Shown piece by piece: positions 27,223 through 47,229 of a stretch of DNA of 64,000 bases. This stretch comes from Candidatus Bipolaricaulota bacterium (GTDB taxonomy: Bacteria; Patescibacteriota; Patescibacteriia; UBA11705; DATKZF01). Position numbers and translations under genes: made by a program. The stretch covers positions 92,508-156,507 of the forward strand of contig DATKZF010000001.1 of NCBI GenBank assembly GCA_035528115.1, written 5' to 3'. The notes below the pieces were generated by a model that worked only from the letters and a program-made list of their open reading frames with translations, did no database searches and was not told the DNA's origin. Numbering within the stretch: the stretch's first letter is position 1; each line of letters starts with the position of its first letter.

Positions 27223-28731
27223 ATGCCAAAACTATTCGATAAAACATTCTACATCGCCCTGGGAATATTCATTCTTACTGAAATTTTGTCGATTATTGGG
27301 TTTTTCAACGTCTTCATGGAAAAGCCCTTGTTCATTTTAATATTGCTTTTAACCGCTGTTTTGGGCTGTATAAAATATGAGTTCAGTGTAATTGTATTGA
27401 TTTCCGAATTGATTATCGGCTCAAAAGGTTATTTATTTTCCTGGCCGATAACTCAAGAAAGTGGCATTTCAATTCGGCTTGGTATTTTCCTAATTGTTTT
27501 CTTGATCGGTTTGATTAAAATTATTAGGGATTGTTTGAAAAAAGAGGGGAGATTCATCTTCTGGTATTCCAAATTAAGAAATTATTATTTTCTTATTTTT
27601 ATTGTTATTTTTTGGGGAGTCATTTGGGCCTTGATTAGAAAAATAAGCCCCGGTGATATTTTCTTTGACTCAAACGCCTATTTGTATTTAGGTTTGGCGC
27701 CGATTTTATATCAATTAATCACCTCAAAAGCTCAAATTTTGAATTTATTGAGAGTTTTTCTGGCGGCCACTGCCCATGTTTGTCTCAAATGTTTCGTTTT
27801 ACTTTATATCTTCTCGCATGGCCTGAGCTTTGCCGAACCGCTTTATCACTGGGTCAGGGACACCGGCTTTGGAGAAATCACTTTATTATCGGGCAATTTT
27901 TTCCGCGTTTTCTCACAAGCTCAGATTTACTCCTTAATCGGTTTTTTTATCGCTTTTGCATTACTGATTTCCTTGAAAAATTTAAGAACTAAGAATGCGA
28001 TCGGGCTGTTTATTATTTCCGCCTCGGCGCTATCAAATGTGATTTTCAGCTTGTCTCGAAGCTTTTGGGTGGCCGCGGCCGGAACTTTTATTATATTGAT
28101 CGGGGTAATGTTTTTTAAATATCGCCTAAAAATCAAAGAAGTGAGCAAAATAAAAGCTTGGTTTTTCAGCGCTTTGACAATCAGCGTTCTTTTGATCATC
28201 GCGGTGGTCAAATTTCCGATACCGCCGGTAAAAGTTGACCTTGACGCTTTGCGGCACAGGTTTCAAATCAGCGACGAAGCCGCGGTTTCCAGTCGTTGGA
28301 GCCAACTGCCCGAGCTCGGTCTGGCCATTGCCGGACATCCAATCATCGGCTCGGGCTTCGGTCAAACAGTCACTTACATTACTTCGGATCCCAGGCTTTT
28401 GTCCGAATTTCCGGATGGCAAATACACGACTTTCGCTTTTGAATGGGGCTACCTTGATCAAATCTTGAAATTCGGTCTGGCCGGATTGGTCATTTATCTG
28501 CTTTATATTTATAAAATATGGCGATTGGGTTGGTTTGCCGCTAAAAACGCGGTGAAGGAATTTGAGCGGCCGCTGATTTTGGGCTTGATCTTCGGCCTAC
28601 TGGCTCTGATGGCAACGCATATGTTCAGTCCATACCTTAACCATCCTCTTGGAATCGGGTATTTAATTTTGATTGGGATTTGGTTTGAAATTTTACCAAT
28701 ACCTGTCGTTTCAACCTCATCACAAAAATAA
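27223..28731 (+). CDS. O-antigen ligase/polymerase-like polytopic membrane protein
   Basis: More than 10 TM segments with a large periplasmic loop, in a glycosylation gene context. Confidence 0.5.
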   Translation: MPKLFDKTFYIALGIFILTEILSIIGFFNVFMEKPLFILILLLTAVLGCIKYEFSVIVLISELIIGSKGYLFSWPITQESGISIRLGIFLIVFLIGLIKIIRDCLKKEGRFIFWYSKLRNYYFLIFIVIFWGVIWALIRKISPGDIFFDSNAYLYLGLAPILYQLITSKAQILNLLRVFLAATAHVCLKCFVLLYIFSHGLSFAEPLYHWVRDTGFGEITLLSGNFFRVFSQAQIYSLIGFFIAFALLISLKNLRTKNAIGLFIISASALSNVIFSLSRSFWVAAAGTFIILIGVMFFKYRLKIKEVSKIKAWFFSALTISVLLIIAVVKFPIPPVKVDLDALRHRFQISDEAAVSSRWSQLPELGLAIAGHPIIGSGFGQTVTYITSDPRLLSEFPDGKYTTFAFEWGYLDQILKFGLAGLVIYLLYIYKIWRLGWFAAKNAVKEFERPLILGLIFGLLALMATHMFSPYLNHPLGIGYLILIGIWFEILPIPVVSTSSQK

Positions 28732-28802
28732 TCGCTGTCTCTCTATCCCGGCATCGGGGTCGTGAGGAAATAAGAGGGGAATCACTTATTCCTCTTTTAA
28801 TA

Positions 28803-28831
28803 TTGACAATTTCATTCAAAATGCTATATTT
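28803..28831 (+). promoter_or_regulatory. Sigma70-like promoter TTGACA-N16/17-TATATT
   Basis: First signal in the GC-rich islet. A strong SD (AAGGAGG) lies 7 nt before the ATG. Confidence 0.5.
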
Positions 28832-28861
28832 AATCTCCGATCGCAAAAAAGGAGGTGTCAC

Positions 28862-29086
28862 ATGTGGGACATTGATCCGTCGGGAACCGCGCTCAACAGA
28901 GAAGGCATGCTGGTGGCCATTGCGCTGGCCATCTTCGTTGTCGTCATCTACCTCGTCGTGAGAGGAGTCCTGATTCGACGAGAACTGCGGTACCTGGAGG
29001 AGCTCAGAAGAAACAGCGACCCACCCAGTACTGATGAACCGACTCCAATCACGGAATTGGGGGGAGACGGGGAGAAAAATGCTTGA
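28862..29086 (+). CDS. 74-aa single-TM peptide (P1)
   Basis: GC-rich ORF with a hydrophobic core (VAIALAIFVVVIYLVV) and an acidic/Pro C-tail. Strong SD. Confidence 0.4.
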   Translation: MWDIDPSGTALNREGMLVAIALAIFVVVIYLVVRGVLIRRELRYLEELRRNSDPPSTDEPTPITELGGDGEKNA

Positions 29087-29225
29087 TATCCTTTGGTTTC
29101 TCAATGACAAGCAGGCCGCGCTCCTCGTGGGCTTCGGCGGCTTGATCATCGCGTACTGCTGCATCTACTTTCTGTTTGCGACTGGAGCGAAAAAAAGCAC
29201 CTCGCAAGGTTGTCCGAGAAAGTGA
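29079..29225 (+). CDS. 48-aa single-TM peptide (P2)
   Basis: MLDILWFLNDKQAALLVGFGGLIIAYCCIYFLF... Its ATG overlaps the P1 stop, and a GGGGAG SD precedes it. Confidence 0.35.
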   Translation: MLDILWFLNDKQAALLVGFGGLIIAYCCIYFLFATGAKKSTSQGCPRK

Positions 29226-29268
29226 ATATCCCAAGCGCGGACTGAATCTGGTTCGCGTTTTTGAATTC

Positions 29269-29297
29269 TTGACAGCGAGCTAAGGCTTGTGTATATT
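29269..29297 (+). promoter_or_regulatory. Consensus sigma70 promoter TTGACA-N17-TATATT
   Basis: ttgacagcgagctaaggcttgtgtatatt, followed by a GAGGAG SD 8 nt before the ATG. Confidence 0.55.
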
Positions 29298-29337
29298 TAG
29301 GGGAGGAGGAACCCCTTCGCGGTGAGGAGCTAGTGCC

Positions 29338-29460
29338 ATGAAAGCTATGCCCGAAAACAGTCCTAAGGCGTACCGGTACTTCCCAGTGTTCCTGATCACT
29401 TTGTTGATCATCTTGGTGATCATCGAACTCCTCACTAAAACTTTATCCACGTGGCGCTGA
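29338..29460 (+). CDS. 40-aa single-TM peptide (P3)
   Basis: MKAMPENSPKAYRYFPVFLITLLIILVIIELLTKTLSTWR. It has its own promoter and SD. Confidence 0.4.
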   Translation: MKAMPENSPKAYRYFPVFLITLLIILVIIELLTKTLSTWR

Positions 29461-29526
29461 TCACGCCCCAAAGAGTCCGCCTGCCATAAAGGCGCGACAA
29501 ACGTGAAGTGAATCTACTTCGCGTTT

Positions 29527-30456
29527 TTATTGTAATTTTAATCCTATGAATTCCGGATGTCCGTTGATAAAATCATTGGCACCTACTTCTTTTTTCCCTT
29601 CCAACTTAACTTTTTTGATTTCCAAGCACCCGTTTTCGCATTGAACCAAAATCCTATCGTCATGTTTAAAAACCGAGCCGACCGGTTTAGCTTCACCGCA
29701 TTCGGCGACATCAGCCGACAATATATCCAATTTTTTATCGTTAAAAAAAGTAAAAGCGCCCGGCCAGGGAGTAAACGCTCTAATTTGATTAAAAATATGC
29801 TCGGCGGAACTTTGCCAGACAATACGGCCTTGGCCTTTGGTGATGGTGGGAAAGTAAGAAGCCGCCGAATCATCTTGTTTTTGCGGATTGATTTGACCTG
29901 ACAGATAATTAGAAATGGTTTTAGACATGAGTTCGGCGCCGAGCACGGACAAGCGGTCATGAAGCGTTTGAAAATTATCGCTCTTTTTGATTTGCGATTT
30001 GTTCTGAGAAATAATATCTCCCGTATCCAGACCGGCGTCCATTTTCATAATAGTAACCCCTGTTTCCTTGTCTCCGTTGAGCAAAGCGGCCTGAATGGGC
30101 GCGGCGCCGCGGTATTTGGGGAGTAGGGAAGCGTGAATATTCAAACAGCCATGTTTTGGCAGATCCAAAATTTCCTTGGGTAAAATTTTGCCGAAAGCCA
30201 CCACCACGCCGAGATCGGGTTGTATTTTTTTCAATTCATCAATGAAATTTTTATCCAACTTTTCCGGCTGTAAAATTAAAAAATCACGCGCTTGCGCGTA
30301 TTCTTTGATCGGCGAAGCCGATAATATTTTATTTCTGCCCTTTGGTTTATCAGGTTGCGTAACGACCGCTTCGATTGAGAAATTCTCAGCCAGCGCTCGA
30401 AGAGTCGGGATGGCAAAATCGGGCGTGCCGAAGAAAATTACTTTTATGTTGTTCAT
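29527..30456 (-). CDS. fmt: Methionyl-tRNA formyltransferase
   Basis: N-terminal IFFGTPDFA motif, SLLPKYRGAAPI, and a C-terminal domain. Confidence 0.9.
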   Translation of the reverse strand: MNNIKVIFFGTPDFAIPTLRALAENFSIEAVVTQPDKPKGRNKILSASPIKEYAQARDFLILQPEKLDKNFIDELKKIQPDLGVVVAFGKILPKEILDLPKHGCLNIHASLLPKYRGAAPIQAALLNGDKETGVTIMKMDAGLDTGDIISQNKSQIKKSDNFQTLHDRLSVLGAELMSKTISNYLSGQINPQKQDDSAASYFPTITKGQGRIVWQSSAEHIFNQIRAFTPWPGAFTFFNDKKLDILSADVAECGEAKPVGSVFKHDDRILVQCENGCLEIKKVKLEGKKEVGANDFINGHPEFIGLKLQ

Positions 30457-41348: not shown

Positions 41349-41378
41349 CCCGCGAAGAATGACCTCGCGGGTTTTTGG
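41349..41378. terminator. Bidirectional terminator
   Basis: ACCCGCGA-agaatgacc-TCGCGGGT followed by TTTTT. Confidence 0.5.
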
Positions 41379-41413
41379 GTAGGATTTGGGGGTGGGTGAG
41401 TTACCGGTGGGAA

Positions 41414-42733
41414 CTACTTGCCGCCGTTCACGAGCTTCAGGCGCACGCGGACGGAGCCGGAAGCGACCTCGGAAGCCGCGCGCTGGAGCTTTCGCTCGTT
41501 CGCGCGCTGGAAGCGATTCCACAGCCAGCTCAGCGTGGTGCTGAGAGGCTGAGCCTCCGCCTCAACCTCGATCCTGCTTCCATCGCGGAAGCGAGAATCC
41601 TTGAGGCCGGACTTTCTGGCCAGCGCCACGGCCATGGAGGCCTCGCTCGAGTGGAGGAGAACGACCCGATCCTTGTCCTTGACCTTGAAGGTCATGACGA
41701 GAATCGGGCAGACGTCCATGCCCGCAATGGCGTCCGGGTGAGGGCCGAAACCGGTCGGGAACAAGCCGCTTTCGACGCAGAAGGCAACGATCTCCTTCCA
41801 GTCGAACACCGGCCATTCCACCCGATCGCTCGGGTGTGCGAACCTCTCGGTCTCCGAGTTTTCGAAGACCTCCTTGAGCCGCCGCATGAGCTCGAACGGC
41901 TCGAAGTTCAGCGGGTCGCTCGACTCGAGGCGAGCGACCACCTTCGCCGTCTTCTCCTGACGCTTCTTGTCGCGGCCGGCCATGTGCTTGGCCAGCCGGA
42001 ACAGATCGGCCGCTCCGTCCTCGAGGCGGTCGAAGACCAGATCCTTTCGGACCTGGCAGATCGCCACCGCGTTCAAGCGGCCGAGGATGGCGAATCCGGG
42101 CCGTCCGGTCGCCCGCGACACGAGAGCGAAGTCGCGCTCGCTCTTGTCGAGCGCGAGCGCTTTGGCGCGCTCGGCCAACCTTTCGGGGTTGAGCTTGCCC
42201 TTGCCGACGATGTCGTCGCCGAGAGCCTCGGTCATGGCTTCGGCCGAGAGGAACTTCCCCTCGCCGGAAATAGCCGCCTTGACCTGCTCCTGCCGAGCGG
42301 CCCAGGCCAGAGGGTTGATGAGCGGTACGATCTGCCGCTGATCGATCTTGGCCTGACGGCTAATGCCCAGCCGTCGCGCCTCTTCCTTGTCGCGCGCGGC
42401 CAGCACCGCGGCCGCGCACTTGCGGTGGTAGATGTCGCCCTCGCCCTTGACAACGAAGGCTTCTGACACGGAGATGACACCTGTCATTTCCGCCTTCCGG
42501 CACACTCTGCAGTGCACCTTCAGCTTGTCTAGGGGGAGCGAGACCTTGCGGTCATCAACTCCCGACTTTATTAGGTGGGTGATCTGGTCCGGGCCGGAAA
42601 TGGTCGTCTTGCCTTCCTCGCCGATGAAGGTCACCGGCAGGATCTCGTTGTTCCCGTTCTTGACCGCCACGGTCGTGCCGTGGAATGCGATCACCTGGGC
42701 CACAGTCTTCAATTCCTTAGTCGCCATGATCAT
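41414..42733 (-). CDS. GC-rich 439-aa hypothetical protein (foreign-looking)
   Basis: Marked GC enrichment across 41340-42830 between AT-rich flanks. Composition is protein-like (K/E/A/R-rich), and AAGGAGC precedes an ATGATCATG start. The antisense ORF 41375..42466 looks like a GC-shadow ORF. Confidence 0.55.
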   Translation of the reverse strand: MIMATKELKTVAQVIAFHGTTVAVKNGNNEILPVTFIGEEGKTTISGPDQITHLIKSGVDDRKVSLPLDKLKVHCRVCRKAEMTGVISVSEAFVVKGEGDIYHRKCAAAVLAARDKEEARRLGISRQAKIDQRQIVPLINPLAWAARQEQVKAAISGEGKFLSAEAMTEALGDDIVGKGKLNPERLAERAKALALDKSERDFALVSRATGRPGFAILGRLNAVAICQVRKDLVFDRLEDGAADLFRLAKHMAGRDKKRQEKTAKVVARLESSDPLNFEPFELMRRLKEVFENSETERFAHPSDRVEWPVFDWKEIVAFCVESGLFPTGFGPHPDAIAGMDVCPILVMTFKVKDKDRVVLLHSSEASMAVALARKSGLKDSRFRDGSRIEVEAEAQPLSTTLSWLWNRFQRANERKLQRAASEVASGSVRVRLKLVNGGK

Positions 42734-42989
42734 GCTCCTTGCCCGACCTCGCGGGCTTTTCTGGGTGTTCTCGAATCTGGCCGATCTTGCGATCGGATTA
42801 CTCGCGCTTTAATGCTTGCTTAGCGGAACTTTTTGGCAATATACTAAATAATCGTTCGGCTTTTTCGCCGAATCGAACATTAAATAATATCACATTTTAC
42901 TCAAAAAGTCAATATAGTGCTTATTTTTAAGCTAATTTTAGCGAATTTTAAAAACATTTCATTTAATCAACCGATTTTAACAGCTAAAA

Positions 42990-45898: not shown

Positions 45899-45920
45899 TA
45901 AATAGCAAAATAAATAAAAA

Positions 45921-45947
45921 ATCGCCTCAAAAAGGCGTTTTTTCTTT
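45921..45947 (+). terminator. Intrinsic terminator
   Basis: CGCCT-caaaa-AGGCG followed by TTTTTT. Confidence 0.6.
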
Positions 45948-45955
45948 TAAAATGA

Positions 45956-46229
45956 TTCAGCCGTCCACTTGTTAGCAGACGGCTGAAAATGTCGTAGAGT
46001 CCGACCAAGATCTGCCATCACTCGATGGCTTCACTCAGTCGGCGCCGCCGGGTCACTCGGTCAGGTCGCGTCGCGCTGGCCGTCACGATGCCGTCGTCGA
46101 GGCACAGACATTTGGAACCGTATGCCGAAACAGCGACTCACTGGGAACCCTCCATGGCTTTCCTCCTTGCCATGTGAGTTTTAGACACCCTCGCACACCT
46201 TTGTGCAAGAGATCCAAAGAAAAGAACTG
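45956..46229 (-). ncRNA. Candidate structured RNA or leader transcript (unclassified)
   Basis: Bounded by the minus-strand promoter at 46236-46263 and the hairpin TCAGCCGTC...GACGGCTGA (45957-45986). GC-rich with several 6-bp hairpins. No ORF of 60 aa or more. Confidence 0.3.
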
Positions 46230-46235
46230 ACAACA

Positions 46236-46263
46236 TTATAGCAAATATTTATATATTGTCAAT
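46236..46263 (-). promoter_or_regulatory. Consensus sigma70 promoter (TTGACA-N16-TATAAT), near-palindromic and possibly bidirectional
   Basis: Reverse complement reads ttgacaatatataaatatttgctataat. The plus strand reads CTGACA-N17-TATATA. Confidence 0.5.
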
Positions 46264-46338
46264 AGCCAGAAGGCATTATTGATGTTTTTTATCTTATTTT
46301 AGACAAAAAATCAAAATTCATCCATTACATTTAAAATT

Positions 46339-46556
46339 AAAAAACCGTCCGCTCAAGAGCAACGGACGGTCAGGTTGTGGGCGCCACTTGGTGGACGCCG
46401 GTTGCCGGTTTCGGAGCTCTCCCGAGAGACGCTCCAGCCCAACGGACAGGACCAGAACCAGCACATCGAGCTATCTTTCGCTCTTCCAACCTAACGCTAG
46501 TCCATTTTTTTGGCCAACAGCTGAAGCGTTAGGGCGCTTGCGAATTAGCTCGATGG
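46339..46556 (-). ncRNA. Candidate structured RNA of about 215 nt (unclassified)
   Basis: Runs from the minus-strand promoter TTGACG-N17-TATTAT (46561-46590) to the terminator CCGTCCG...CGGACGG plus U-run (46339-46370). Long-range pairing CATCGAGCTA...TAGCTCGATG, and GC-rich hairpins. Confidence 0.35.
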
Positions 46557-46560
46557 CATA

Positions 46561-46590
46561 ATAATATCAAACATCGTAAAACCCGTCAAG
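46561..46590 (-). promoter_or_regulatory. Sigma70-like promoter TTGACG-N17-TATTAT
   Basis: Reverse complement reads ttgacgggttttacgatgtttgatattat. Confidence 0.5.
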
Positions 46591-47229
46591 TATATCAATA
46601 TTTGCATTTCGTGGGTCATAAAACTCAAAAACCATGGGGGATAGCAAAAATTTGTCTATAATTTGAAATGAGCGATATTATTTACAACAAGTTAAGAAGA
46701 AGGAAAACAAGCAGCCGTTGATTTATTATTTATTTAATTGTCTTTGCTTCAAGCTCAGATTTTGAGATTCAGGCGGGGAGAGTAGCGCTCATCGCATTGG
46801 ATTGGAGGATATGAAGCGTCGCACAATATACCTTATGCGACACATTAACCAACTTTCCTTGGGCTATGTGTCGCATAAGGTTCGCATATTTTGCAACGCT
46901 TGCGGTGCAATCTCGCAAAATATGCGTAATAGGCCTTAAAACGCAATTTTGAGCCTCGCTTTTGGTCTATTTTGTGTTAATATTATTGACTTAAACGAAT
47001 CTTCAACAGAAAAAAATTTCAGCTCCTTTAAGACATTTAAAATTTAAAAATCCGGATTTGCCATCCGAACCCTTTTTCCATGATTTATTTTTTATTTTCT
47101 ATTACTTAATACTCGTTACCTATTGCTGGTTTATAAAAACCCATTTCCCCATTATCTTCATCGCTCTCTCCCACTATGCGTCGCAAAACATGATACCAAA
47201 ATTTTAGCAACCGGATTAACTTGAAATAT

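Follow-up and report, generated by a model that had tools for sequence, protein, structure and literature searches.

A probable orphan operon of small single-helix membrane proteins at a variable site in an uncultivated bacterium

Small membrane proteins are under-annotated everywhere and are almost unstudied in uncultivated bacteria with reduced genomes. Several described members, for example MgrB, AcrZ, KdpF, and CydX, modulate larger membrane proteins (reviewed in PMC12648545). The locus reported here contains three small ORFs whose predicted products, P1 to P3, are similar to these proteins in size (40 to 74 aa), in the presence of a single transmembrane (TM) helix and no catalytic domain, in the possession of strong expression signals of their own, in a very narrow distribution, and in having been missed or annotated as 'hypothetical'. 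In contrast to the described members, with which they share no sequence similarity, P1 to P3 display a foreign-looking codon usage, and P1 and P2 are predicted to be translationally coupled, suggesting that they act as a heteromer and not as a single modulator. The small-membrane-protein class is defined by a length of at most ~100 aa, one TM helix, and a genuine gene; the locus agrees with all three, conservation and a dN/dS ratio of ~0.4 pointing to genuine genes in the case of P1 and P2.

The window, that is the whole 64-kb stretch of DNA that was analyzed, belongs to a metagenome-assembled genome (MAG) labeled Ca. Bipolaricaulota at NCBI. The haplotypes carrying P1-P2 probably form one narrow, Patescibacteria-like lineage. 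The cassette spans ~0.8 kb (28740–29525) between a Wzy_C/O-antigen-ligase-like gene and the convergent gene fmt, and all the sequence features reported in an earlier note on this DNA were found at the positions it gave. They form two self-contained transcription units, each comprising a promoter, a short leader, a strong Shine-Dalgarno (SD) sequence, one or two small ORFs, and a terminator, as follows.

28771–28799, plus strand: T0, intrinsic terminator ending the Wzy_C/O-antigen-ligase-like gene upstream; 12-bp hairpin with its 3' arm entering the U-tract.
28803–28830, plus strand: promoter 1, TTGACA-16-TATATT with a TG extended -10, scoring 11/12.
28849–28856, plus strand: SD of P1, AAGGAGGT, 5 nt before the ATG.
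28862–29086, plus strand: candidate gene for P1 (74 aa), annotated as hypothetical protein HUT21889.1.
29079–29225, plus strand: candidate gene for P2 (48 aa), annotated as HUT21890.1, with the SD GGGGAG.
29233–29262, plus strand: T1, intrinsic terminator closing unit 1 (P1-P2); 11-bp hairpin, its loop containing GAAUCU, then U5.
29269–29297, plus strand: promoter 2, TTGACA-17-TATATT, scoring 11/12.
29324–29329, plus strand: SD of P3, GAGGAG, 8 nt before the ATG.
29338–29460, plus strand: ORF for P3, a candidate single-TM peptide of 40 aa seen only in this strain.
29499–29528, plus strand: T2, intrinsic terminator of the P3 unit; 12-bp hairpin, then U5.

The description of this segment as a GC-rich islet is borne out by windowed GC, in a modest form. 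The GC content of the islet is 50.4% versus 41.3% for the window, a shift of ~2 sd that places it in the top 2.2% of 786-nt windows and makes it only the fourth highest GC peak, the segment at 41.4–42.7 kb reaching 65%. The GC shift is genuine but modest. GC at third codon positions (GC3) is 0.64, 0.69, and 0.70 for P1, P2, and P3, respectively, versus 0.27–0.57 for host genes, a range that leaves out the foreign-composition ORFs at 41.4–42.7 kb (pooled z of ~5). The versions present in the sister haplotype L099 have a GC3 of 0.67–0.78 versus 0.44 for the ligase-like gene of the same haplotype. High GC3 in both lineages after a synonymous divergence (dS) of ~0.8 could also mean selection rather than foreign origin.

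The sequence comes from a MAG, and long chance ORFs do arise in GC-rich DNA, as illustrated by a 175-aa antisense ORF at 28637–29164. An assembly chimera, or ORFs generated by chance in GC-rich non-coding DNA, would be an artefactual explanation for the islet. However, two independent Logan assemblies carry the same sequence across the locus as the NCBI MAG, with identity extending over 13–15 kb, and homologous versions are found in the same context on three further contigs (ENA, JGI). The chimera that the earlier note had named as a possible source of the GC shift is contradicted by these assemblies. In addition, codon-position and dN/dS analyses favor the sense frames, and in L099 only 86 aa of the antisense ORF remain. 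The artefact explanation, which we regard as having almost no chance of being correct, is effectively refuted. The samples holding the locus are SRR8554643, SRR8554512, ERZ27247128, ERZ27293400, and JGI 3300014656. As a coding candidate in its own right, the 175-aa antisense ORF was rejected: it overlaps the 3' end of the ligase-like gene, T0, and the promoter, and substitutions in P1-P2 are most frequent at the third codon position in the sense frames, corresponding to position 1 of this ORF.

Both promoters are near-consensus sigma70 sites, as the earlier note had claimed, with inferred transcription starts near 28837 and 29304. Sites scoring at least 11/12 are rare, only eight being present on both strands of the window versus 2.2 ± 1.4 in shuffled sequences, and the other six are located upstream of genes or of a tRNA. 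The presence of two such sites within 0.8 kb is therefore not attributed to chance. Each unit is closed by a hairpin. The region of T0 (28732–28802) folds with -25.1 kcal/mol (z = -3.4); in the sister haplotypes, the T0 position is occupied by a different hairpin, belonging to the T1/T2 family. T1 (-14.3 kcal/mol, z = -3.3) is related to the hairpin that terminates the ligase-like gene in L003 and L099 (z = 5–6). T2 adjoins the stop codon of the convergent fmt gene (29527–29529), and the 3'UTR of the P3 unit including T2 folds with -26.2 kcal/mol (z = -5.5). T2 is probably bidirectional, since the minus strand also folds (-9.9 kcal/mol, z = -3.4). The similarity of the two tails, reported earlier, amounts to 81% identity between T1 and T2 over 31 nt, both consisting of a hairpin followed by U5; their stems differ yet stay paired. 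Apart from these two terminators, no notable direct repeat was found at the locus. T1 and T2 were also considered as integron attC sites, a candidate that was rejected because they are plain 28-nt hairpins with U-runs and an integrase is absent.

The neighborhood comprises glycosyltransferase genes, the Wzy_C-like gene, fmt, def, priA, and clpB. No lysin, prophage, mobility (integrase or transposase), exporter, or peptidase gene was detected within ±10 kb, the nearest tRNA lies 20 kb from the islet, and no paralogue of P1 to P3 is encoded elsewhere in the 64-kb window. Rfam searches yielded no match at the gathering score in the window and only noise at E ≤ 10 for 28500–29800.

The strong SDs proposed for the three small ORFs were all located, and each ORF encodes one hydrophobic helix, with Kyte-Doolittle values for the single hydrophobic 19-residue segment of 3.08 for P1, 2.33 for P2, and 2.78 for P3. 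P1 has a conserved N-terminus (MWDxDPSGTxLNREGML) and a predicted TM helix at residues ~15–33, beyond which come a basic helical segment, the motif NSDP, and a disordered acidic tail; its AlphaFold model consists of one long helix (residues 7–52). Trypsin digestion of P1 would generate peptides such as WDIDPSGTALNR and NSDPPSTDEPTPITELGGDGEK. The start of P2 overlaps the stop of P1 (ATGCTTGA). The segment DILWxLxDKQAALLVGFGGLIIAY of P2 is conserved and its basic C-tail is variable. In both proteins, basic residues are located on the C-terminal side of the helix. Two export-related signals were considered and rejected: a signal of the type IV pilin or Flp type at REG|ML in P1, which has no Glu at +5 and is followed by a basic tail of the cytoplasmic type, and a double-glycine leader in P2, in which the GG sits in the TM core.

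Conservation of P1 and P2 was assessed in two additional haplotypes, L099 and L003/L004, represented by three short contigs of ~1 kb. The peptides turned out to be kept in these relatives, P1-P2 being located directly after the same ligase-like gene. The -35 hexamer, the extended -10, the SD, and the overlapping stop and start codons are retained within intergenic DNA that is otherwise unalignable. At promoter 1, L003 and L099 retain the -35 hexamer, the spacing, and the TGn -10 (TTGACA-16-TACAAT), and both retain the core of the P1 SD (AAAGGAGGTGTC). The P1 homologue of L099, P0124, displays 59% protein identity with P1 (E = 4e-12) in the same genomic context and is the only homologue among 1.84 billion representative proteins; a word search of 5.8 billion clusters revealed no homologue of P1. 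L099 also has a homologous P2 ORF with an overlapping start (ATGCCGGTTGA), in which the frame of the C-tail is shifted by a 10-nt insertion, the ORF then running off the contig; L003 has a variant P2 tail.

Between the window and L099, P1 has a dS of 0.71–0.80, the ligase-like gene having a dS of 0.79, and a dN/dS ratio of 0.36–0.44 (Fisher p = 0.008). The synonymous excess extends to P1 and P2 taken together (p = 0.002), and the versions of P1-P2 differ by an in-frame 3-nt indel. These patterns of substitution indicate that purifying selection has acted on P1 and P2 and that their divergence has kept pace with that of the neighboring gene. The claim that the locus encodes genuine, independently transcribed single-TM genes can thus be upheld in part: the comparisons argue firmly that P1 and P2 are genuine genes for small bitopic membrane proteins, whereas the corresponding claim for P3 is plausible only. 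L003/L004 is uninformative on selection because its P1-P2 is identical to that of the window. The identity covers 321 of 321 nt of the SD-P1-P2 stretch, the ligase-like gene of L003 being 87% identical, and along 0.7 kb L003 resembles first the window, then L099, then the window once more. Recombination accounts for this identity, since the ligase-like gene shows the same mosaic and the fold of the P1-P2 mRNA is unremarkable (z = -1.4); a constraint at the RNA level was rejected on the same grounds.

In L099 and L003, the ORF right after P2 (MPIYQCCCDDCGEEFEV...) matches the FmdB-type zinc-ribbon family (Pfam Zn_ribbon_8, TIGR02605; E = 4e-6 and 1e-5, for a 25-aa fragment) and has a high GC3, like the cassette. 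The window has a terminator, promoter 2, and P3 at this place, and no FmdB-like ORF was detected in it by tblastn. The P3 unit was rejected as a diverged copy of the FmdB-type gene (local alignment score of 19 versus 16 ± 2 for shuffles). In more distant relatives, with 59–75% identical flanking genes, the cassette is absent and other cargo is present between the ligase-like gene and fmt: six other genes in L085/L093-95, a PemK/MazF-like toxin gene in L086 (E = 1.6e-12), a defense island (Abi, type III R-M, helicase, PD-(D/E)XK) in L096, and a VWA-like gene in L098. No trace of P1 to P3 was found in any of these loci by tblastn or tblastx. Homologues of the ligase-like gene without P1-P2 are 59–64% identical, and a search of genome contigs with fmt gave nothing nearer than 53% identity among the matches listed. 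Relics of the genes occupying the gap in relatives (VWA, ECF sigma, and others) were sought in the cassette and rejected, tblastx and blastn giving no match. The differing accessory genes at this site indicate that the gap between the ligase-like gene and fmt is a variable hotspot. The suggestion that the locus is an insertion is in keeping with this comparison, in which the site differs between relatives as expected for an acquired accessory cassette, and with the GC3 contrast. Based on its atypical composition and variable site, the cassette was probably acquired horizontally.

Taken as a whole, we consider it probable, with some reserve, that the locus is an orphan operon of small membrane proteins, accessory and non-lethal, in which a P1-P2 heteromer modulates the membrane following horizontal acquisition. 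P1 and P2 would insert with the N-terminus out and the C-terminus in, according to the positive-inside rule, and would be made in roughly equimolar amounts by translational coupling. The small-residue face of P2 (A13/A14, G18, G20/G21) may mediate packing with P1 into a hetero-oligomer. Much as described small membrane proteins tune larger ones, the resulting complex would play an accessory or modulatory part in the cytoplasmic membrane without being lethal. Unit 2 would contribute a third single-TM peptide, P3, which is restricted to this strain and shares the codon bias of the other two. The cassette would have reached the common ancestor of the haplotypes by horizontal transfer, entering at a variable gap that is prone to recombination and separates two convergent operons, and homologous recombination would now exchange it among haplotypes. 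Of the roles suggested in the earlier note, that of membrane-targeted regulator is the most economical candidate. No conserved partner gene for P1-P2 was found, the adjacent ligase-like gene being set apart by its own terminator. The locus is ordinary in kind, and beyond this uncultivated bacterium its small proteins are confined to a few close relatives; as it stands, the locus leaves the understanding of how small membrane proteins work unchanged. It nevertheless offers a clear example in which promoters, SDs, and terminators can be delimited precisely and coding is supported by comparison for two of the three ORFs, and it may be useful as a benchmark for small-ORF calling, P3 having been missed by all pipelines.

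The earlier note had also suggested a toxin, a holin, or a bacteriocin-like module. If the cassette were a membrane-acting toxin module, at least one peptide would permeabilize or depolarize the membrane, as a type I toxin, holin, or abortive-infection effector, another peptide or an unseen RNA would neutralize it, and the module would be maintained at a defense and toxin-antitoxin (TA) hotspot through addiction or action against phages. In their small size, single TM helix, and basic C-terminus, the peptides resemble the TisB, Hok, and Fst-type toxins (class: PMC12648545), and, like type I toxins (Hok, TisB, Fst, BsrG, DinQ), which are often lineage-restricted and tied to accessory DNA, they are short hydrophobic proteins with charged C-termini. 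The atypical composition, the occurrence of PemK/MazF and of the defense island at the same site in relatives, and the presence of an identical P1-P2 allele in a diverged background (L003) are consistent with such a module, and strong constitutive signals would be compatible with a toxin neutralized by a co-expressed partner. Type I toxins are usually shorter than 60 aa, a range that accommodates P2 (48 aa) and P3 (40 aa); P1 (74 aa, 40 residues of which form a soluble tail) exceeds it.

The expression signals of P1-P2 argue against this explanation. The mRNAs of type I toxins are typically translationally inert and under tight translational silencing (PMC12648545). P1-P2 has a leader of ~25 nt, short and unstructured, an exposed consensus SD, and a near-consensus promoter, a combination that is the opposite of silencing and sets the unit apart from type I toxin genes (PMC12648545). 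In the minimum free energy (MFE) fold of the P3 mRNA, the SD-side segment GGUGAGGAG pairs with CUCCUCACU inside the ORF, forming a 9-bp helix in which a 9-nt anti-SD sequesters the SD. This sequestration was rejected as evidence for a toxin because it is not significant after removal of the terminator hairpins, the ORF region alone folding no better than shuffles (z = -0.5). Scans for minus-strand promoters, which weak or atypical promoters escape, revealed no site scoring at least 10/12 and no promoter-like site within 28740–29525, the nearest, in the 3' end of fmt, scoring 9/12; nor does the cassette contain an antisense terminator pair, and thus no convincing antisense or adjacent small RNA unit was found. 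P1 to P3 matched no toxin, holin, defense, or other model in Pfam, NCBIfam, PHROGs, PADLOC, and the PDB, the best holin match in PHROGs being obtained with P0124 only (E = 0.44). Phage holin/antiholin pairs also consist of small membrane proteins encoded side by side in overlapping frames, but here no endolysin, spanin, or other phage gene is located nearby, and tblastn and pattern searches of phage, plasmid, and viral collections (including 2.9 million viral contigs and 50,697 phage genomes) detected no relative. A membrane-acting toxin module is therefore, in our estimation, unlikely.

Two-peptide bacteriocins carry glycine-rich small-residue motifs in their helix. A class IIb-like pair formed by P1 and P2, with P3 as the immunity peptide, would fit a layout in which two small peptides are co-transcribed side by side and another small TM peptide comes next, and the helix of P2 contains the motif GFGG. 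However, P1 and P2 have no sec signal, P1 has no double-glycine leader, and the GG of P2, inside the helix, is not part of a leader consensus. Within ±10 kb, neither an ABC exporter with a C39 peptidase nor a dedicated immunity gene was found, nor any accessory or regulatory gene, and none of the peptides matched a bacteriocin family. The basic residues following the helices point to retained membrane proteins with a cytoplasmic C-terminus, and P3 is missing in the sister haplotypes, where the FmdB-type ORF follows P2 instead. This explanation is very improbable.

A more speculative proposal, which we hold to be quite unlikely, is that P1-P2 together with P3 or the FmdB-type gene constitutes an undescribed addiction, exclusion, or defense module of the membrane among ultra-small Patescibacteria-like bacteria. 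It is raised because P1-P2 is 100% identical between the window and L003 despite flanks diverged by 13%, because its codons look foreign, and because the site hosts TA and defense genes. If the proposal were true, these three signs would reflect gene-specific spread under selection rather than passive recombination.

The operon reading that we favor assigns a protein to unit 2, as to P1-P2. Alternatively, unit 2 (29269–29528) might specify a small non-coding or dual-function RNA of ~225 nt, P3 being a chance ORF and P1-P2 the only protein genes. P3 was never called by gene finders, is absent from a 15-billion-protein collection, and has no homologue in any locus compared. The full transcript folds with z = -3.5, and two ORF-less promoter-to-terminator units elsewhere in the window look like structured RNAs, indicating that the genome uses this layout for RNAs. 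On the other side, the excess structure of the transcript lies wholly in the hairpins of the 3'UTR and terminator, and no Rfam match was obtained. An RNA function of unit 2 is accordingly possible, if doubtful. The favored reading, in which P3 is a single-TM gene, is plausible in view of its GAGGAG SD, of the clean hydrophobic helix of ~18–19 residues in its predicted product, and of its codon-position GC of 0.35/0.35/0.70 (Fisher p = 4e-4), a frame-specific bias that matches the codon bias of P1 and P2.

The GC-rich islet located at 28740-29525 comprises two transcription units, P1-P2 and P3, which encode small ORFs and lie between an O-antigen-ligase-like gene and fmt.

Features of the gap and of its borders (window positions; method in brackets).
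27223-28731, plus strand: gene for a 502-aa membrane protein (O-antigen-ligase-like), upstream border
28771-28799, plus strand: T0, terminator of the ligase-like gene, a 12-bp hairpin with a terminal U-run (fold)
28803-28830, plus strand: promoter 1, TTGACA-16-TATATT with a TG extended -10 (consensus scan)
28849-28856, plus strand: Shine-Dalgarno sequence (SD) of P1, AAGGAGGT (direct sequence reading)
28862-29086, plus strand: P1, 74 aa (ORF)
29079-29225, plus strand: P2, 48 aa, start ATG overlapping the P1 stop, ATGCTTGA (ORF and sequence reading)
29233-29262, plus strand: T1, terminator of the P1-P2 unit (fold)
29269-29297, plus strand: promoter 2, TTGACA-17-TATATT (consensus scan)
29324-29329, plus strand: SD of P3, GAGGAG (direct sequence reading)
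29338-29460, plus strand: P3, 40 aa (ORF)
29499-29528, plus strand: T2, terminator of the P3 unit, preceded by a 3'UTR hairpin (fold)
29527-30456, minus strand: fmt, with Formyl_trans_N and Formyl_trans_C domains, downstream border

T2 abuts the stop codon of fmt. The upstream gene is designated O-antigen-ligase-like because a 64%-identical homologue has a Wzy_C match; the 502-aa protein itself had no Pfam match at E ≤ 0.01. Direct reading bore out the description made in the earlier note, including the promoters, the SDs, the three ORFs and their overlap, the similar tails, and the GC-rich composition. Windowed GC was indeed raised in the islet (50.4% versus 41.3% for the window, approximately 2 sd), which places it in the top 2.2% of windows, although three peaks are higher.

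The same sequence, base for base, is present in two independent Logan assemblies across 13-15 kb around the locus, which excludes the assembly chimera envisaged in the earlier note. P1 and P2 correspond to HUT21889.1 and HUT21890.1, both annotated as hypothetical proteins in a MAG that bears the label Candidatus Bipolaricaulota. P3 was not found in a collection of 15 billion proteins, indicating that it has been called by no pipeline. The closest homologues of fmt are 67-75% identical, and the nearest named relative by this gene (67%) is a MAG of Patescibacteria in which the clpB-Memo-priA-def-fmt order is shared; among the matches listed for the GTDB species set, none was above 53% identity. 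Based on the Patescibacteria homologue, the organism looks Patescibacteria-like and its NCBI label doubtful.

Sites matching the sigma-70 consensus at 11 or more of the 12 positions numbered 8 in the window, both strands included, versus 2.2 ± 1.4 in shuffled sequences. The six sites located outside the islet each precede a protein gene or the tRNA-Trp gene, indicating that such sites are canonical promoters used by the organism and that two of them in 0.8 kb are meaningful. T1 and T2 each fold into a clean hairpin followed by U5 and are 81% identical over 31 nt, their stems differing yet remaining paired. Their 19-nt tail had no other copy in the window, where a lone site with 3 mismatches was within chance expectation. 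Beyond the islet, a perfect 12/12 promoter (TTGACA-18-TATAAT, minus strand, 31108->31079) overlaps the 3' end of priA and extends slightly past its stop, approximately 80 nt upstream of def, suggesting that def-fmt probably carry their own promoter.

P1-P2 could be compared with three contigs of approximately 1 kb, each harboring a related version at the corresponding site 3' of the ligase-like gene. P1 and P2 are therefore conserved in relatives, a point on which the proposal of a genuine cassette depended. Two contigs, L003 and L004, represent one haplotype, present in one ENA assembly and one JGI assembly. The 3' end of their ligase gene is 87% identical to that of the window, with differences mainly at third codon positions, and their intergenic DNA is unalignable to that of the window. 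Their promoter has the same -35 hexamer with the same 16-nt spacing to a TGn-TACAAT -10, and the SD is also kept. Identity is 100% (321/321 nt) over a stretch that starts at the SD, covers P1, and extends to codon 41 of P2; P2 then diverges into a different, longer tail. The third contig, L099, represents another haplotype with a terminator, promoter, and leader of the L003 type. It encodes P0124, a diverged P1 (59% protein identity, E = 4e-12) and the sole credible P1 homologue among 1.84 billion representative proteins, followed by a P2 homologue whose ATG again overlaps the P1 stop (ATGCCGGTTGA). P1 and P2 may be more widespread, among uncalled small ORFs.

The terminator located 3' of the ligase gene in the sister haplotypes (L099 283-308 and its L003 equivalent; GCGAAGTGATTTAACTTCGCGTTTTT) belongs to the T1/T2 sequence family (alignment z = 5-8), to which T0 is unrelated. 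TTGACA is found within 4-5 nt downstream of every hairpin of this family, and the pair resembles a module that recurs at terminator-promoter junctions. After P2, an ORF beginning with MPIY (QCCCDDCGEEFEV...) and matching FmdB-type zinc ribbons starts in L003 and L099. This ORF (MPIYQCCCDDCGEEFEV...; L099 743-817, L003 1076-1092) directly follows P2 with the same high GC3, and the contigs end inside it; the window has T1, promoter 2, and P3 at this site instead.

Between the window and L099, P1 displayed a dS of 0.71-0.80, on a par with the ligase gene (0.79), and a dN/dS of 0.36-0.44, with a synonymous excess for P1 (p = 0.008) and for P1+P2 (p = 0.002). Substitutions were commonest at the third codon position of the sense frame, and one indel was in frame. 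P1 was nearly invariant over its 17 N-terminal residues (MWDxDPSGTxLNREGML), as was P2 over residues 3-26. Based on the conserved position, the expression signals, the dN/dS, and the substitution pattern, we conclude that P1 and P2 are real protein genes, which were present at this site already in the common ancestor of the haplotypes and evolve fast under constraint. A 42-nt block of P2 (29115-29156; GCCGCGCTCC...ATCGCGTAC) is the same in the window and L099, though the adjoining P1 is only 70% identical in DNA. The segment 29175-29188 (TGCGACTGGAGCGA) is kept in L099 but read in another frame owing to a 10-nt insertion, indicating that the P2 tail is not conserved as protein. The P2 frame of L099 reaches the contig end with no stop codon, and an assembly indel is possible.

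Compared over window positions 28207-29225, the L003/L004 haplotype is a fine-scale mosaic: 28507-28631 is window-like (124/125), the DNA from 28632 on, leader included, is L099-like, and SD-P1-P2 is again identical to the window (321/321). This pattern speaks for frequent homologous recombination between lineages that occur together. Constraint at the RNA level was rejected as the cause of the latter identity, which recombination explains, since the P1-P2 mRNA had no unusual structure (z = -1.4).

A single strongly hydrophobic segment is present in each of P1, P2, and P3. P1 and P2 have acidic residues before the helix and a basic cluster after it, a distribution that predicts an N-out/C-in topology. 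AlphaFold modeled P1 as a single helix (residues 7-52; high confidence at 11-40) with a disordered acidic tail. The P2 helix has small-residue motifs (A13/A14, G18, G20/G21). The stop/start overlap, kept in L099, points to translational coupling and production of P1 and P2 in roughly equimolar amounts, and a P1-P2 heteromer would be a reasonable inference. Searches of P1 to P3 against Pfam, NCBIfam, PHROGs, PADLOC, and the PDB returned no family match.

Composition sets the cassette apart, with a GC3 of 0.64 for P1, 0.69 for P2, and 0.70 for P3, versus 0.27-0.57 for the long ORFs of the window, except two overlapping ORFs of obviously foreign composition at 41.4-42.7 kb. Likewise, GC3 was 0.67-0.78 for the L099 versions of P1 and P2 and the FmdB-type fragment, versus 0.44 for the L099 ligase gene. 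The suspicion that the cassette is an insertion was strengthened by more distant relatives, in which the flanking genes are 59-75% identical, the cassette is missing, and other cargo is present.

Cargo in contigs of more distant relatives.
L085 and L093-95 (L093 7039-12250): ligase-like gene and fmt separated by six genes, which encode a 173-aa protein, an ECF sigma factor, a VWA protein, a pentapeptide protein, and two others
L086 (2456-2875): ligase-like gene followed by a PemK/MazF toxin
L096 (6990-12930): island after fmt with PD-(D/E)XK, helicase, Abi (Abi_C), and type III R-M genes
L098: VWA-like gene

No traces of these genes were found in the gap of the window, no mobility genes were found near the islet, and the only flanking repeats were the terminators. 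Judging from its differing content, the gap between the ligase-like operon and the convergent priA-def-fmt operon is a variable cargo hotspot, the cassette being one cargo among several alternatives. Its likeliest origin would be horizontal acquisition by the ancestor of the haplotypes.

For P3, the sister contigs end before the corresponding site and have another gene after P2. An SD located 8 nt from the ATG, a clean helix, and a GC content by codon position of 0.35/0.35/0.70 (p = 4e-4), with the GC3 bias of P1 and P2, argue for a protein. The unit could alternatively specify an RNA, as its full transcript folds with z = -3.5, but this excess stems from the 3'UTR and terminator hairpins, the ORF part having a z of -0.5. 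The minimum free energy structure includes a 9-bp SD/ORF pairing devoid of statistical support. We put the chances that P3 is coding at even or slightly better.

The most economical reading is that P1 and P2 form an orphan operon of two co-translated small membrane proteins, whose role in the membrane would be accessory or modulatory, followed by P3 as a strain-specific third unit. The toxin, holin, and bacteriocin functions suggested in the earlier note fared poorly: neither a lysin or phage context nor an antisense RNA unit was found at the islet, and no exporter or leader peptide was found for its peptides. Type I toxin transcripts are typically held translationally inert (PMC12648545), whereas the P1-P2 mRNA has strong expression signals and no silencing leader was found on it. 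A toxin-type module is unlikely, though the defence and toxin-antitoxin character of the hotspot in relatives speaks for it. As an orphan operon, P1-P2 would be a new and unsurprising family within a well-known, very common kind of gene, at a locus that is well delimited and fit for experiments.

Elsewhere in the window, 41375-42800 is a far stronger compositional island (62-67% GC versus 41%), probably the one meant by the summary GC finding of the earlier note. It contains a 439-aa ORF (41414-42733, minus strand, GC3 0.85; no match in Pfam or PHROG) overlapped by a 363-aa plus-strand ORF, and represents either foreign DNA or a fragment that is mis-binned or chimeric. Finally, a 1.3-kb gap devoid of long ORFs harbors two promoter-to-terminator units on the minus strand (45915-46600). 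The first has a perfect 12/12 promoter (TTGACA-16-TATAAT, 46262->46235), approximately 314 nt, a fold z of -5.0, and two hairpin and T-run terminators at its end. The second starts near 46552, spans approximately 218 nt (z = -4.1), and ends with ACCGUCCGUUGCUCUUGAGCGGACGGUUUUUU. With no Rfam match even at E ≤ 1, both are candidates for unknown structured RNAs.
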